Positions 8,079 through 16,124 of a stretch of 64,000 nt of DNA are shown piece by piece. Source of the DNA: an uncultured Candidatus Peribacteria bacterium (lineage in GTDB: Bacteria > Patescibacteriota > Gracilibacteria > BD1-5 > UBA6164). A model generated the notes under the pieces. It was given only the letters and a program-made list of their open reading frames with translations, was not told the origin of the DNA and did no database searches. Position 1 is the stretch's first letter. Each line of letters begins with the position of its first letter. A program made the translations under genes and the position numbers. Where the stretch lies: the NCBI GenBank assembly GCA_964415565.1, contig CAYQAV010000131.1:291-64290 (forward strand), in the 5' to 3' direction.

Positions 8079-10700
8079 ATGTTTGATATGGGTATTAAAG
8101 TTATTAAAACAAGAGATTGAGATTTGTTACACTTCGATAGAAGTAGAATAGAGAGAGTTATAGAAAAAGCAGCCGAAAGTGTATGAGAAAAAAACCTAGA
8201 TTTTGTAGATTTTATAACTGATAATGTAATTCAAGCATTAGAGTTAAAATTAGAAAAATTTGATAAATCTCAGTTTATAACTGTTGAAATGATTCAAGAC
8301 CAAGTAGAAAGAGAATTAATGGAATCTTGATATTTTCAAGTAATGAAACATTTTATTATCTACAGAAGTAAAAGAGCCGAAGCAAGAGAAAAAGCAAAAG
8401 AAAAAGTAGAAAAAAAATTATCTGAAAATACATTTAAAATTATTAAAACTACTTGAAAAAAAGAAAGTTTTGATATGGATAAAATAGAAAAAACTTATAA
8501 AATCGTAAGTTATTGATTAGCTAGAAAATGTAGATTTGAAGAAATAAGTGATAGTTTTAGAAAATATATCGTTGAATGAATGAAAACAAACGATATAACT
8601 AAGATGCTTATTAAATCAGCTATAGATTTGATTTCTATTGAAAATACTTCTTGGCAATTTATTGCTTGAAGATTGGCTTTAATTGATTTGTATAAAGAAG
8701 CTTCAAACAATAGAAAAATGGATATCAAAAAAATATATGAAGCAAAACATTATGCTGAATTATTTGATGAATATGTAAAATTATGATTATATTCTAAAAA
8801 TTTCTATAATTATTATACAAAAGAAGATATTTTAGAAGCAGGTAAATACTTGAAAAAAGATTATGATTTTGAATACAATTATACAACTATTTTGATGTAT
8901 AAAAAAAGATATCTTTTAAATCCAAATAAGAAAATAAAAGAATTACCTCAAGAAATGTATATGAGTATTGCTCTATTTTTAGCTATGCCTGAACCAAAGG
9001 AAAATAGATTAAAAATTGCAAAAAAGATATATGATTATTGTGCTACTGGTAAAATTTCTCTACCAACTCCAACTCTATTAAATGCTAGAACAAATTTTCA
9101 TCAATTATCTAGTTGTTTTAAATTTAATGTTGAAGATGATTTAAGAGCAATTTATCATTCTATTGAAAATATGGCACAAGTTTCTAAATTTTGAGGATGA
9201 ATTTGAGTTTATCTTTGAAATATTAGAAGTAGAGGGGCAAATATTAGATGAGTAAAAGGTGCTGCAGGTTGAGTTAATCCTTGGATTAAAGTTATAAATG
9301 ATACTGCAGTTGCAGTAAATCAATTGTGAGCTAGAGCTTGAGCAATAAGTGTAACTTTAGATGTTTTTCATAGAGATATATATAGTTTTCTTGATATTCA
9401 AACTGAAACTTGAGATATAAGAAATAAAAGTTTTGATGTATTTCCAGCGGTTTCATTTCCAGATTTATTTATGGAAAGAGTAGCAAATGATGAAAATTGG
9501 ACACTTTTTGATCCAAAAGAAGTAACTGATTTTACAGGTAAAAAATTACAAGATCACTTTTGAGCTGAATTTGAAGTTTTTTATTCTGAGTGTGAAAAAA
9601 ATGAAAAATTAGAATTAAAAGAAGTTATTTCTGCAAGAGATTTGTTTAAAAAATTTTTAAAAGCAACTGTTGAAACTGGTATGCCTTATGCATTTTTTAG
9701 AGATACAGTAAATAAAGCAAATCCAAATAAACATGCTTGAAATATATATTCAACTCAACTTTGTGTTGAAATATGTCAAAATACAAGTCCTTCTAAATTT
9801 ATAGAAGAAACAATTGAAGATGGAAAAATAATTATAAAATACGAGCCAGGAGATAGCGTAGTTTGTAACCTAGCATCAATAAATGTTGCAAAAGTTAATA
9901 CTCCTGACGATATCAAAAAAGTACTTCCAGTTGCTATGAGATTACTTGATAATGTAATTGATTTAAATTTCTATCCTATAAAAGAAGCTGAAAAAACTGC
10001 AAAAAAATATAGATCTGTTTGACTTGGATTTTTATGACTTGCTGAATATTTAGCTGTAAATAAATTGGCATACGATAGTAAAGAAGCAAGAACAGTTGTT
10101 GATGAATTATTTGAAAAATATGCATATCAAACTCTTAAATCTTCAAATGAATTAGCAACAGAAAGAGGAACTTATGAAGTTTATAAATGAAGTGAATGGT
10201 CTAAATGAATATTATTTCAAAAAGATGCTAATTGGTTTAGAAATAATTCAAAAATGAGTGCTGACTGGTTAGAATTAATAGAAAATATTAAAAAAACTTG
10301 AGTAAGATTTGCTTATCACTTAGCTCCAGCACCAAATACTTCTACTGCTTTAGTAGTTGGTACAACAGCTTCAATTTTACCTATTTATAAAAAATATTTT
10401 GTTGAAACAAATGCAATTGCACCAAGTGTAAATGTGGCACCAAACTTAGATGAAGAAAATTTTTGGTATTACAAAGAATATGTAAATATGAATATGAATG
10501 ATGTAATTGATATGGTTTCAGTTATATATAAATGGATAGATCAATCAATCTCATTTGAATGGATGATAAACCCTGCAAATGTTTCTCCAAAAGAGCTTTA
10601 TGAATACTATTTTAAAGCACATAGAGAATGAATTAAAACAGTTTATTATGTTAGATCTATGAGTCTTGAAGTAAAAGAATGTGTAAGTTGTAGTTGATAA
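8079..10700 (+). CDS. nrdA: class I ribonucleotide reductase alpha subunit with N-terminal ATP-cone (873 aa)
   Basis: ATP-cone VIKTRDGDLLHFDRSRIERVI. LPTPTLLNARTNFHQLSSCF. KFGGGIGVYLGNIRSRGANIRG with TGA at 9192, 9198, 9204. STQLCVEI. C-terminal CVSCSG. ATG at 8088 is an alternative start. Confidence 0.9.
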
Positions 10701-11198: not shown

Positions 11199-13403
11199 AT
11201 GTCTATATATAAAGTTAAAAAAAGAAATTGAGCAATAACAACTTTTGAACAAAAAAAGATTGAAGATGCTATAATAAAAGCAATAAAATCAGTTGGTTGA
11301 GATGATTTTACTCAAGTTATTTCTATTACTAATACAATAATTAGTTTAGTTGAAAAAAAGGTTTGAAAAAACATACCAACTGTTGAGCAAATTCAGGATG
11401 AGATAGAAGAAGTATTAATTAAGGAATGACATGATAGTGTAGCTAAAAGTTTTATACTTTATAGACAAAAAAGAAATGAATCTAGAACTGATAAAAATGT
11501 AGTTATAGAAGTAGGTAAATCTATGGAAGAATATTTAGAAAAATCAGATTGGAGAATAAATGCAAATGCAAATTCTGGTTATTCACTTTGAGGTATGATT
11601 TTAAACATTTCTTGAAAAGTAACTGCAAATTATTGGTTATCTCATATATATCCAGCTGAAATTTGAAACTTACATAGAAGTGCAGATTTTCATATTCATG
11701 ATTTAGATATGTTTTCAGGTTATTGTGCTGGTTGGAGTTTAAGGGCATTACTTGAAGAATGATTTAATGGTAGTGATAAGAGAGTTGATTCTTCACCTGC
11801 AAGAAATCTGCAAGCAGCAGTTAATCAAATGATAAATTTCTTATGAACTCTTCAAAATGAATGGGCTTGAGCACAAGCATTTTCAAGTTTTGATACTTAT
11901 CTTTCACCATTTATTCATAAATACAAAGAAGAAATAGAAAAAGAATTAAATGAAGTAAATGCTTCATTTAAAGATGAAAAAGAAAAAAAAGACTATATTT
12001 ATAATAAAACATATAAATATGTTTATCAACAAATGCAAAACTTTATTTTTGGTTTAAATGTACCAAGTAGATGGTGAACACAATCTCCGTTTACAAATAT
12101 AACTCTTGATTGGACTTGTCCAGAAGATTTAAAAGAAAAGGCATTATTCTTAGGTTGAATTGAAAAAGGATATTATAAGAAAAAATATTGAGAATTAGAA
12201 GAGGAAATGAAAATTATAAATAGAGCTTTAATTGAAGTTTATATTAAATGAGATAGAAATGGTAGAGTTTTTACTTTTCCAATCCCAACTTATAATATCA
12301 CTCCAGATTTTCCTTGGGAAGATCCTGATATAGATTTATTGTTTGAAATGACAGCTAAATATTGATTACCATATTTTCAAAATTTTGTAGGGTCACAATA
12401 TAAAAGAGTTAAAAAACCAGATTGAACTATAGAAAAAATTGAAAATCCAGATGCATATAAACCAGGTGCAGTTAGATCAATGTGTTGTAGATTACAACTT
12501 GATTTAACTCAATTAGAAAAAAGATGAGGTTGATTATTTTGAAGTGCGGAAATGACTTGAAGTATATGAGTTGTTACTTTAAATATGGCTCGTATATGAT
12601 ATAACTCGGCTTGAGATAGAGAAGCATTTAAAAATCAAGTAGTTTATCTTATGGAACAAGCAAAAATATCTCTTGAACTAAAAAGAAAAACAATTACAAA
12701 ATGGCTAGAACAATGACTTTATCCTTATACTTATAGATATTTAAGAAGTTTTAGAAATCATTTTTCAACTATTGGTTTAAATGGTATGAATGAAGCAATT
12801 TTAAATTTTACATCTTGAAAAGAAGATATTTCAAGTGATTGGTGAAAAGAATTCACTATGGAAGTAATTGATTTGATGAGAGAAAAACTAAAAGAATATC
12901 AAGAAGAAACTTGAAATATGTATAATCTAGAAGCAACTCCAGCAGAATGAACAACATATAGATTTGCAAAAGAAGATAAGAAACAATTACCAAATATAAT
13001 TCAAGCAGGGACTGAAGAAGCTCCTTATTATACAAATTCTTCTCAATTACCAGTTTGATTTACATCTGATCCATTTGAAGCACTTGATGAACAAAATGAA
13101 CTTCAATGTAAATATACATGAGGAACTGTATTACATTTATATATGTGAGAAAGATTAACAGATAGTAAATCTTGTAAGAACTTTGTTAGAAATGTGTTAA
13201 CAAATTATAGTTTGCCATATATAACTATTTCTCCAACTTTTTCTATTTGTCCTAAACATTGATATGTAAATTGAGAACATGATTTTTGTCCTAAATGTGA
13301 TGCTGAAGTATGATATAATTGAAAAAAATTTGATATAAAAACTAGGGAAATATATACAGATGATAGTGAAAAAATGAAAAAAATTGAAAATGAAGATGTT
13401 TAA
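11199..13403 (+). CDS. nrdD: anaerobic (class III) ribonucleoside-triphosphate reductase, large chain lacking the glycyl-radical domain (734 aa)
   Basis: ATP-cone VKKRNGAITTFEQKKIEDAI. DWRINANANSGYSLGGM, FHIHDLDMFSGYCAGWSL, QAFSSFDTYLSP. Zn-ribbon-like CPKHGYVNGEHDFCPKC. The ORF then ends (..TREIYTDDSEKMKKIENEDV, TAA at 13401) before any RVxGY glycyl-radical motif. Confidence 0.9.
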
Positions 13404-13496
13404 AAATTAAAAATCCACCATTTAATTTACTAATTTATTAAATAAATAAGCAATTTAAGTAGGGGTTATATTATAATTAATTAACCAAATAATATT

Positions 13497-13685
13497 ATGT
13501 CAGCAGTATTTATAAATAAAGAAGGTATGGAAGTTGAAAGAACTAGATGTGAAATCTATACTAGAGTTATGTGATACCATAGGCCAGTTACAAGTTTTAA
13601 TATTTGAAAAAAGAGTGAATTTTATTCTAGAAATTATTTTAAAGAGACAAATCAAAATTTAGATTTCATAAATAAGTATTGTTAA
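13497..13685 (+). CDS. stand-alone NrdD glycyl-radical domain (62 aa)
   Basis: MSAVFINKEGMEVERTRCEIYTRVMGYHRPVTSFNIGKKSEFYSRNYF... matches the NrdD C-terminal consensus (sRv.GY.rpv..wN.GK..E...R). The radical Gly is the TGA at 13572-13574. Confidence 0.7.
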
Positions 13686-13723: not shown

Positions 13724-14617
13724 ATGAAGAGAGCCGATATTAAAGTTTGATTTGCTTGTAATAATCATTGTACTTTTTGTGTTCAGTGAGATAAAAGATA
13801 CAAATATAAACCTAGAACTTTAGATGAAATAAAATCAATTATATTAAATGAATATAATTTATGAGCTAGATCTGTAGTTTTCACTTGATGAGAACCAACT
13901 GTTCATCCAAATTTAGTTGAAGCTGTTTCATATTCTAAAGAATTATGATTTATACAAATTCAAATTCAATCTAATTGAACAAATTTTGATGATATAGAAT
14001 ATATAAAAAAATTACTTAATGCATGAGTAACAGAATTTAGTCCTTCAATTCATTGATTTAAAAAAGAAACTCATGATAAGCAAGTTTGAACACCTTGAGC
14101 TTGGGATAGGGTTGTAAGATGATTAATTAATTTAAGAAAACTAAAATGTTTGGTTATTATTAATTCTGTAATTACAAATGATAATTATAAAGAAATTCCA
14201 TTACTTGCTAAGTTACTTATAGATTTAAAAGTAAATCAATTTCAATTTGCATTTGTTCATATATTATGAAGTGCAGATAAAAATAAAGAAAGTGTTGTTC
14301 CTAAAAAATCTATTGTTATACCATATGTTCATAAAGCACTTGATTTAGCAAAAAATGCTTGAATTCCTGCTTATACTGAAGCAATTCCTTATTGTTTAAT
14401 GCAATGATATGAATATGCAATTTCAGAAAATATAATGCCAGAAACTTCTATAAATGATGCAGAAATGAGAACTGAAAGTTATGCAGAATATAGATGGAAT
14501 GAATGAAAAACAAAAAGAGAAGAATGTAAGTCTTGTTCTAAATATGAACTTTGTGAATGACCGTGGAAAGAGTATCCTGATATGTATGGTTGGGATGAAT
14601 TTGTTCCTTTAAAATAA
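13724..14617 (+). CDS. radical SAM protein (MoaA/NifB/PqqE-like) with C-terminal Cys-rich motif (297 aa)
   Basis: CxxxCxxC cluster GFACNNHCTFC, GGEPT motif VVFTGGEPTVHP, C-terminal CKSCSKYELCEGPW. Confidence 0.8.
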
Positions 14618-14621
14618 AAAT

Positions 14622-15323
14622 ATGCAAATATCTGCAATAAATAAATTTTCTTTGATAGAGTTTCCATGAGAAATTTCTACCATAGTTTTTACTCCTGGTT
14701 GTAATTTTAGGTGTGAGTATTGTCATAATAGTGAGTTCGTATTACCAGAAAAACTGAAAAATGTTTTAAAAAATTTAATAATGGAAAAAGCATTTTTTAA
14801 TTTTTTGGAAAAAAGAAAATGAAATCTTACTTGAGTTTCAATTTGTGGCTGAGAGCCTACTATGCAAACTGATTTAAAAGAGTTTTGTAGAAAAGTTAAA
14901 TCACTTTGATATAAAGTTAAGCTTGATACAAATTGAAGAGATCCATTTATAATTAAAGAACTTTTAGATGAAGATTTGCTTGATTATGTTGCAATGGATA
15001 TAAAATATGAGATATGAAATTTTTCTTATATAGCATGAATTAAATTAGAAGAAAAGATATATTTAGAAACTATAAATATACTTTTAAATTCAACTATAGA
15101 TTATGAATTTAGAACTACAGTTATTAAGTGAATTCATAATGAAGAAATAATAGAAAATATATCAAAATATATTTCTGGAGCAAAGAATTATTACTTACAA
15201 AATTATAGGTCAGGAAATACTTTAAATCAAAATTTTAATTGAGAAAGTTTTAACCAAAATGAGCTAGAAAAATTTAGCGAAATCTCAAATAAATATATAA
15301 AAAATGTATGAATTAGAAACTAA
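14622..15323 (+). CDS. nrdG: anaerobic RNR activating radical-SAM enzyme (233 aa)
   Basis: FSLIEFPGEISTIVFTPGCNFRCEYCHN..GVSICGGEPTMQ..KLDTNG, the PflA/NrdG-type activase, downstream of nrdD. Confidence 0.85.
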
Positions 15324-15380: not shown

Positions 15381-16124
15381 ATGAAAATAAATAAAACAGA
15401 TATTATATGAGAAGTTGCATCAAAATATCCAATTACAGTAAGTGTTTTTTTGAAATATTGAATAGAATTTTGTTGTAAATGAAATATTACTTTAGAGGAA
15501 TCATCAAAAAGAGATAATTTTGATTTAGATTTAGTTTTATCTGAGTTATCTAAGCTTGTTGATTTTAATAATTCTGAAGATATAGATTTATCATCAAAAA
15601 CATTACCTGAAATAGCAGAGTATATTAAAAATACTTTTCATTTACCAATTAGAGAGCTTTTGTATCCAACAGAAGTTCTTGCTAAGAAAGTTGCAATGGT
15701 TCACTGAGAATCACATAAAGAATTATATGAAATTAGAGATATAGTAGAGGGATTAGTTCCTGTTTTAGAAATGCATTTTGATAAGGAATGACAAATTTTA
15801 CATCCAATGTTAAATGAGTTACAAAATAATTTTGATAATAATACTGAATTAAAACCATTACATTGTGGAAGTATAAAAAATCCTATAAGACAAATGGAAT
15901 CAGAACATGATAATTATGGAGATATGCTTTTAGAGTTAAAAAAATTAACATCAAATTATACTTTGCCAGATGGAGCATGTAGAAGTTATCAAGCTTTGTA
16001 TGCTAATTTACAAAAACTAGAAGAGGATTTAATGAGACATACAAATTTAGAAAACTTTATTTTACACCCTAGAGCAATAGAAATTGAAAATAAAATTTCA
16101 TGAAATAGTAGTTGTGGTTTTTAA
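15381..16124 (+). CDS. ric: iron-sulfur cluster repair di-iron protein (RIC/ScdA/YtfE family, 247 aa)
   Basis: ScdA_N-like N-terminus (VASKYPITVSVFLKYGIEFCCKGNITLEES) plus hemerythrin-like His/Glu pattern (HGESHKEL..HFDKEGQILHP..ESEHD..HTNLENFILHP). Confidence 0.8.

Follow-up and report, generated by a model that had tools for sequence, protein, structure and literature searches.

The class III ribonucleotide reductase (RNR) NrdD encoded in a 64,000-nucleotide (nt) stretch of DNA from an uncultured Candidatus Peribacteria bacterium (contig CAYQAV010000131.1, positions 291 to 64,290; hereafter, the window) is divided between two open reading frames (ORFs), one for a large chain of 734 amino acids (aa) and one for a small chain of 62 aa that carries the glycyl-radical loop. 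The data presented below show that these are separate cistrons with their own starts, that their order is large chain, small chain, and then nrdG, the activase gene, and that both are under selection. The split is a feature of a large NrdD lineage and is not confined to this genome. We consider it likely that the two chains make up a functional two-polypeptide class III RNR, that this is the normal state of the lineage, and that the radical resides on the small subunit.

The two pieces of NrdD

The break falls within the following features of the window.
11199..13403, + strand: nrdD large chain, 734 aa (ATG at 11199, TAA at 13401-13403; code-25 translation; Pfam PF13597 and ATP-cone)
13404..13496, no strand: non-coding intergenic spacer, 93 nt, with 3 further in-frame stops and a 66-nt insertion at 13408-13473
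13497..13685, + strand: putative small glycyl-radical subunit, 62 aa (ATG at 13497, TAA at 13683-13685; same frame as the large ORF)

The large chain ends in ...CPKHGYVNGEHDFCPKCDAEVGYNGKKFDIKTREIYTDDSEKMKKIENEDV, 33 residues past the Zn ribbon. The full translation of the small ORF is MSAVFINKEGMEVERTRCEIYTRVMGYHRPVTSFNIGKKSEFYSRNYFKETNQNLDFINKYC, and its core, ERTRCEIYTRVMGYHRPVTSFNIGKKSEFYSR, contains the RVMGY motif with the radical glycine, Gly26.

The window has a G+C content of 23% and contains 66 ORFs of at least 150 aa when TGA is read as sense and 2 when it is read as a stop; its ORFs were translated under genetic code 25, in which TGA encodes Gly. The large and small ORFs hold 35 and 2 TGA codons, respectively, and in an alignment with 69 standard-code homologs, Gly occupied 1909 cells opposite these 37 codons, while Trp did not rank within the eight commonest residues. 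Opposite the two TGA codons of the small ORF, one of which encodes Gly26 (13572-13574), Gly stood in 69/69 of these homologs. TGA is a sense codon for Gly here, and the window is on code 25, which assigns its genome to the Gracilibacteria / Absconditabacteria group; with TGA read in this way, the coordinates and sequences given in an earlier reading of this stretch (hereafter, the initial annotation) all proved correct. The radical Gly is often a reassigned TGA in Gracilibacteria, which proves genetic code 25 from within. Where code 4 was used for translation, as in many database entries, the radical site is misread as RVMWY, showing that TGA encodes the radical Gly there too.

Profile searches and alignments indicate that the two chains together cover a fused NrdD exactly. 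In the Pfam NRDD profile (PF13597, 562 positions), the large chain matched positions 2-529 with a score of 557 bits (cutoff 26.2) and the small chain positions 532-562, and in NCBIfam NF006126 (684 positions), the large chain matched positions 241-653 with 1016 bits (cutoff 548) and the small chain positions 649-683. Likewise, residue 701 of the large chain, at the end of the Zn ribbon, aligned to residue 609 of T. maritima NrdD, and residues 17-49 of the small chain aligned to residues 612-644, which include Gly621. These three comparisons place the break exactly between the Zn ribbon and the glycyl-radical loop, confirming the initial proposal that the small ORF encodes the missing radical domain. 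No PF01228 Gly_radical domain was found on the small chain, for which the sole Pfam match at E ≤ 0.01 was PF13597, and a search of NCBIfam with this chain returned NrdD models only.

The large chain comprises an ATP-cone, an alpha/beta barrel, a finger loop with the sequence SMCCRL (C429/C430), and a Zn ribbon (C684-x2-H687...C697-x2-C700). Across 37 large-chain homologs, C176, C429, C430 and the Zn ligands C684, H687, C697 and C700 are invariant. It therefore has the barrel score, finger-loop cysteines, Zn ligands and nearby NrdG of an NrdD and lacks the loop in cis: neither Pfam nor NCBIfam detected an RVxGY glycyl-radical loop on the large chain, and the same is true at all 86 related loci described below.

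Structure predictions with AlphaFold2 were made for database copies of each chain (P0121 and P0001, each 97% identical to the chains of the window), modelled singly. The large-chain model had a mean predicted local distance difference test (pLDDT) score of 70.5, and its best Foldseek matches in the PDB were all class III RNRs, including those of P. copri (8P2C, E = 9e-27), S. thermophilus, T4 and T. maritima. Its least confident parts were the finger loop (430-455) and the Zn ribbon (680-695), which would be expected of, but does not prove, a chain in need of a partner. The small-chain model had a pLDDT of 67.3, rising to approximately 80 over residues 1-30, and contained two predicted beta-hairpins, at residues 2-16 and 21-30, the second of which bears Gly26 at its tip in the canonical geometry of a Gly loop. 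Foldseek returned no significant match for the isolated small-chain model.

Distribution of the split and selection on both pieces

Searching a protein collection with the small ORF yielded 370 homologs at E ≤ 1e-3, the best 120 of which are without exception stand-alone, measure 51-85 aa and come mostly from Gracilibacteria, so the match lies far beyond chance. The nearest 120 large-chain homologs are 722-761 aa long, and none has a C-terminal RVxGY. We then scanned GTDB species representatives with a profile of the small protein, which gave at least 600 matching stretches (596 confirmed by tblastn), and 80 loci were kept. Within the candidate phyla radiation (CPR), these derive from Gracilibacteria, SR1, Peribacteria, Moranbacteria, Uhrbacteria, Nomurabacteria and Magasanikbacteria; others are from Omnitrophota, Elusimicrobia, Fibrobacterales and Parachlamydiales, and many are from Alpha-, Beta- and Gammaproteobacteria that use the standard code. 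With each locus classified under its own genetic code, 86 loci were classifiable, and in all 86 the NrdD ORF stops 10-35 residues past the last Cys of the Zn ribbon, with the Gly loop encoded by an ORF of its own. The split noted initially in a single genome is thus real, and it recurs from CPR to Proteobacteria, in hundreds of bacterial species, some of them well studied. Three of these arrangements, all from cultured bacteria, are given below.
Iodobacter arcticus: large chain 664 aa, gap 166 nt, small chain 59 aa, then nrdG
Ralstonia solanacearum megaplasmid (133 plasmid records): large chain 685 aa, ATGA overlap, small chain 58 aa, then nrdG, overlapping
Cupriavidus necator H16 pHG1: large chain 676 aa (WP_011154155), gap 142 nt, small chain 66 aa (WP_011154154), then nrdG (WP_011154153)

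The relation between the two ORFs varies from locus to locus. Three loci (L001-L003) have the order large chain, small chain, activase with a 24-nt spacer and a shared frame, and three more (L004-L006) have the same order with an 11-nt spacer and a different frame. Across the 86 loci, the frame difference between large and small ORF is 0 in 18, 1 in 24 and 2 in 44, so the shared reading frame in the window does not serve as a clue. The interval between them ranges from overlaps, which in 11 loci are the 4-nt ATGA, up to +221 nt. Among 55 non-redundant proteobacterial loci, 51 have a GGAG, GAGG or AGGA core 4-16 nt before an in-frame start of the small ORF, compared to a background of approximately 8% per random site for such a Shine-Dalgarno core. 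A homolog of nrdG lies downstream of the small ORF in 85 of the 86 loci, directly in 78 and with another gene between in 7, the window included; nrdG was not found in the remaining locus.

Both pieces also bear the marks of selection. Among Gracilibacteria, the small ORF had a ratio of nonsynonymous to synonymous substitutions (dN/dS) of 0.12-0.47; in the large chain, the ratio was 0.08-0.38 over the last 33 codons and 0.07-0.13 over the barrel and body. Purifying selection acts on both the small ORF and the tail of the large chain. An alignment of 36 CPR and Gracilibacteria homologs of the small chain contains 21 invariant positions. Beyond the loop itself, a Cys eight residues N-terminal of the radical Gly (Cys18, 13548-13550) is invariant in 80/80 unique small chains, across phyla, and a terminal Cys or Cys-rich tail (KYC, YAC, CGCAC, CPCSC, GCGCS) occurs in the small chains of 38/80 loci and 74/120 database matches, the window codon being at 13680-13682. 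It is possible that Cys18 or these tails provide a redox or metal contact.

To place fused and split forms relative to one another, a neighbour-joining tree was built on the intein-free C-terminal barrel region. From the 150 nearest 50%-identity cluster representatives and the fetched loci, 217 sequences covering this region were kept, of which 60 are fused and 157 split-looking. The lineage of the window forms a pure split clade (85/85), and the fused sequences P0257, P0258/P0324 and P0297 branch beside it. The cluster representatives include some other variants of NrdD. Many (P0241-P0390) are 900-1880 aa long and match the query in 3-5 separate stretches, the pattern that would be expected of multiple inteins. 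In P0251, P0253, P0269, P0289, P0293, P0309, P0310 and P0315, which are fused, the Gly loop is followed by a thioredoxin/NrdH-like domain (CPNC/CPKC ... APTL), which would fit thioredoxin-dependent reduction in that group. Another set, including P0273, P0278, P0294, P0307 and P0314, ends in ...FCPYPHTEE(D/E)LxRFG... without the second Zn-ribbon CxxC or the Gly loop, and may represent another kind of break or a C-terminal variant.

Two small genes of the glycyl-radical type stand apart from any recognized nrdD. One is on the A. vinosum plasmid pALVIN01 (L089, 3480-3689), with no nrdD large chain or nrdG annotated within approximately 3.5 kb on either side, and the other (L011, 4935-5159) lies among small ORFs of no assigned role, with no nrdD large chain in the approximately 5 kb upstream. 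One small ORF neighbouring the latter has the same N-terminal MTLD-YKK motif as the small ORF. Searching a phage collection with the small protein gave one weak match only, and there is accordingly no evidence for carriage by phages.

The initial annotation had interpreted the break as a duplication or insertion scar, citing the likeness between TREIYT in the large-chain tail and TRCEIYT in the small chain. Neither this likeness nor the spacer supports such a scar. In the nearest relatives (L090, L091 and L092), whose proteins are 97% (L090) and 95% identical to those of the window, the spacer is 27 nt, and the spacer of the window consists of this 27-nt spacer plus a unique, AT-rich insertion of 66 nt (13408-13473) that leaves both ORFs untouched. 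No significant copy of the insertion was found elsewhere in the window or in related loci, and it was rejected as a repeat or mobile element on this basis. No mobile-element ORF lies between the halves in the spacers of the window (93 nt), its nearest relatives (27 nt) or the other loci (-4 to +221 nt); no Rfam search was made on the spacer. As for the motif, TREIYT is kept only among close Gracilibacteria. Other CPR lineages have R-x-x-[YH]-T, more distant ones have RKQHT or RKKYQ as its counterpart, and proteobacterial large chains stop 10-20 residues past CPxC with no TREIYT-like motif. Given this restricted distribution, TREIYT cannot be the footprint of the original fission, and the nucleotide similarity of the two motifs is at the level expected of identical residues at 23% G+C. 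A duplication scar was therefore rejected, while an old local duplication inside the CPR branch may have occurred. Since the large-chain tail is under selection, it probably has a role; our guess is that it perhaps holds the small chain.

The split operon of the window has the following neighbours.
8079-10700, directly upstream of nrdD: class I RNR alpha NrdA with two ATP-cones (TIGR02506, 548 bits)
13724..14617, + strand: HxsC-like radical S-adenosylmethionine (SAM) gene between the small subunit and nrdG (Pfam Radical_SAM)
14622..15323, + strand: nrdG, class III RNR radical-SAM activase, 233 aa (TIGR02495 (NrdG2), 187 bits against a cutoff of 131; CxxxCxxC motif CNFRCEYC)
15381-16124, just past nrdG: RIC/ScdA-type di-iron protein, of the iron-centre repair kind

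The product of 13724..14617 scored under the cutoffs of NCBIfam HxsC4 and HxsC. An HxsC-like gene is present at the same position in L090 and L091, and it probably represents genomic context and does not belong to the RNR. Just past nrdG and nrdR in L002 and L003 lies a larger Hxs-like cluster with radical-SAM genes and HxsD (L002, 4800-8110). With NrdA and ScdA/RIC flanking the class III RNR, the organism evidently sees both oxic and anoxic conditions.

A two-chain enzyme and the alternatives

In the two-chain RNR that we favor, the large chain would supply the ATP-cone, the barrel, the two-Cys finger loop and the Zn ribbon, and the small chain would supply the beta-hairpin with the radical glycine. 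The hairpin is predicted to enter the barrel of the large chain and to place Gly26 beside Cys429/430, as Gly621 is placed in T. maritima NrdD, and NrdG would abstract the hydrogen from Gly26. Because the loop is untethered, NrdG could act on the free small chain. O2 cleaves class III RNR at the glycyl radical (PMC3019208), and as this is the site of cleavage, the small radical carrier would be the sole casualty. More tentatively, then, only the 62-aa chain might be lost upon exposure to O2, and the large chain might be recharged with a fresh small chain, which would amount to a built-in repair similar to that provided by GrcA/YfiD. Such a recharge cycle is plausible.

Indirect support for glycyl radical formation and nucleoside triphosphate reduction by a split NrdD comes from C. 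necator H16, in which pHG1 carries the split operon. As related in the portion of the C. metallidurans CH34 genome paper that cites Siedow et al., the NrdDG of pHG1 is indispensable to complete denitrification in H16, and a pHG1-free mutant is rescued by cobalamin, probably via NrdJ (PMC2864759).

Several points weigh against this explanation. The association of the large and small chains is something we infer, as is, in its entirety, the advantage of recharge, and the fission could be selectively neutral. The single-chain models are of moderate confidence only (pLDDT 70.5 and 67.3), with the finger loop and Zn ribbon poorly predicted without a partner. Farther out in the tree, fused and split-looking forms are mixed, requiring at least 22 parsimony changes, a count that includes distant split-looking representatives known as sequences without genomic context, some of which may be truncated gene calls.

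The foremost alternative, to which we would give somewhat less than an even chance, is that the fission was indeed neutral, with the two chains forming a permanent assembly that acts as a fused NrdD does and gains nothing from exchange or repair. Fused and split forms seem interchangeable in evolution, and P0257, P0258 and P0297 are close fused relatives. Moreover, a split RNR without known benefit exists in the class II NrdJa/NrdJb of P. aeruginosa, and the translational coupling implied by ATGA overlaps suggests 1:1 production of the chains. However, the split is kept without exception in a broad clade (85/85), orphan small genes exist on A. vinosum pALVIN01 and on the L011 contig, which has no large chain, many carriers are denitrifiers at oxic-anoxic boundaries, and an aerobic class I NrdA adjoins nrdD in the window. 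These observations are only suggestive.

Conversely, the small chain might be a diffusible and exchangeable radical cofactor that is activated by NrdG off the enzyme, docks on the large chain, and is replaced after cleavage by O2, with orphan copies on plasmids or mobile DNA topping up the supply. We regard this as possible but rather doubtful.

It is very unlikely that the small protein is instead a GrcA-type spare for another fused NrdD or glycyl radical enzyme and that the large chain is inactive. Like GrcA, it is a small stand-alone protein with RVxGY, and orphan copies exist, but it matches the NrdD family only and not the PFL-type Gly_radical domain, it sits between nrdD and nrdG in 85/86 loci, no fused nrdD was seen in the window, and the large chain is strongly conserved (body dN/dS approximately 0.1). 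Since a Gly loop is never found on the large chain itself, the small chain of the two-chain enzyme would be an obligate subunit and not a spare.

Still less probable is that a single polypeptide continues to be made through read-through, ribosomal hopping, frameshifting or protein trans-splicing. In the window and its closest relatives, the shared frame and a spacer length divisible by three would allow for this; yet read-through would have to pass four stops in the window, other loci have frame differences of 1 or 2, ATGA overlaps or gaps of up to 221 nt, and small ORFs have their own ATG and Shine-Dalgarno site. For trans-splicing, split-intein halves would not fit in the 33-aa tail or in the approximately 15-aa N-terminus of the small chain, and no Pfam intein domain was found.

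The least credible explanation, with a probability close to nil, is a pseudogene or a sequencing or assembly error, that is, a decaying nrdD in this genome, which the four in-frame stops between two same-frame ORFs might suggest were the window viewed alone, but which is contradicted by the same break in 86/86 loci, found across phyla in separately made assemblies and in complete genomes of cultured bacteria, by purifying selection on both pieces (dN/dS < 0.5), by invariant catalytic Cys and Zn ligands, and by an intact nrdG. The nearest relatives vary in spacer length and not in either ORF, and the variety of frames and overlaps makes one shared systematic assembly error impossible. The initial annotation was thus right to discount a sequencing frameshift, while the pseudogenization that it held open is not borne out; the decay of one half that this would entail in relatives, through loss of nrdG or mutation of catalytic Cys residues, was not seen, with nrdG in 85/86 loci and the Cys invariant in 37 homologs. 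Collectively, the frames and gaps, Shine-Dalgarno sites, order relative to nrdG, dN/dS values and invariant residues effectively exclude a pseudogene, an assembly error and read-through.

Relation to known systems and implications

The two-chain NrdD is most similar to the single-chain NrdD of the T. maritima type (RNRdb NrdDh/'NrdD2'; PDB 4COI, 4U3E), with which it shares the ATP-cone, the barrel, a cognate NrdG, the double-Cys finger loop (SCCR/MCCR), the CxxH...CxxC Zn ribbon and an alignable Gly loop. It differs in having the Gly loop on a polypeptide of its own, an additional conserved tail on the large chain past the Zn ribbon, and 13-25 additional residues at the N-terminus of the small chain, which in Gracilibacteria are predicted to fold as a beta-hairpin. 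The double-Cys MCCR finger loop seen in the large chain has been assigned, in the T. maritima paper, to RNRdb group NrdDh4 (PMC4493059).

The comparison with GrcA/YfiD, the spare part for pyruvate formate-lyase (PFL), was also drawn in the initial annotation, and it holds in part. The small chain, like E. coli GrcA/YfiD and phage T4 Y06I, is a stand-alone carrier of the glycine of a glycyl radical enzyme, and it is presumed to be activated by the activase of its partner and to dock in the partner's barrel. In contrast, GrcA is a homolog of the C-terminus of PFL (PF01228), while the small chain belongs to NrdD (PF13597), and PFL keeps its own Gly domain, with GrcA stepping in only after cleavage by O2, whereas no loop is present on the large chain at any of the 86 loci or among its 120 nearest homologs. 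Spare-part proteins have been validated only for PFL (PMC8683613, from 2021), and a 2026 review describes small radical proteins as known only for formate lyases (PMC13450708).

Other RNR genes are split as well, namely those for class II NrdJa/NrdJb in Pseudomonas aeruginosa and for class Ia NrdA-a/NrdA-b in Aeromonas phage Aeh1, the latter with a homing-endonuclease gene between the NrdA halves. As in the NrdD described here, two adjacent ORFs cover a protein that is a single chain in relatives, but the RNR class and the break point differ, and the break in NrdD isolates the radical-bearing element itself. Compared to Aeh1, the spacer of -4 to +221 nt contains no ORF. The arrangement also resembles class I NrdA/NrdB in concept, with a stable radical on a separate small subunit that is passed to the catalytic subunit. 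However, the small subunits are not homologous, NrdB being a ferritin-like di-metal protein whose radical, tyrosyl or metal-centred, is transferred over a long range, whereas the backbone glycyl radical is presumed to be directly beside the catalytic Cys.

Full-text searching of the open-access literature found no description of a two-chain NrdD, in agreement with the initial statement that none was known, and we think it probable that this form is truly undescribed. The RNRdb paper gives class III as alpha2, with the radical 'in alpha' (PMC2795772), and RNR phylogenies and surveys of insertions and extensions leave a split class III alpha unmentioned (PMC9531940, PMC9669993, PMC4390871). Across a large and phylogenetically broad NrdD lineage, the split is a conserved architecture, and apparently an overlooked one. 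Public names for the small protein include 'hypothetical', 'Uncharacterized', 'Oxidoreductase' and 'anaerobic ribonucleoside-triphosphate reductase', and sometimes it is not annotated. For pHG1 of H16 (L088), RefSeq calls the 66-aa ORF nrdD and the 676-aa chain 'ribonucleoside triphosphate reductase'. In C. metallidurans CH34, Rmet_5138 is, by its position, presumably the small ORF. The genome paper for this strain gives NrdDG as Rmet_5137 and Rmet_5139 and passes over Rmet_5138 (PMC2864759). Annotation pipelines thus treat the small ORF as hypothetical, leave it out, or name it as the whole NrdD, and a subunit goes missing from RNR censuses in which each class III system is counted as one 'alpha'.

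In the accepted picture of glycyl radical enzymes, the radical resides on a C-terminal loop of the catalytic chain, and this loop has to swing out of the barrel to meet the activase. A split NrdD would offer a ready minimal substrate for NrdG, a direct test of how the loop enters and exits the barrel, and a test of recharge after damage by O2. Carriers of the split include C. necator H16, R. solanacearum, Paracoccus, Bradyrhizobium and many CPR bacteria, and heterologous expression of these NrdDs will fail without the co-expressed small ORF. If the small chain does prove to be exchangeable, the radical of class III RNR in this lineage would be stored on a subunit of its own, as it is in class I, and repair would be built in.

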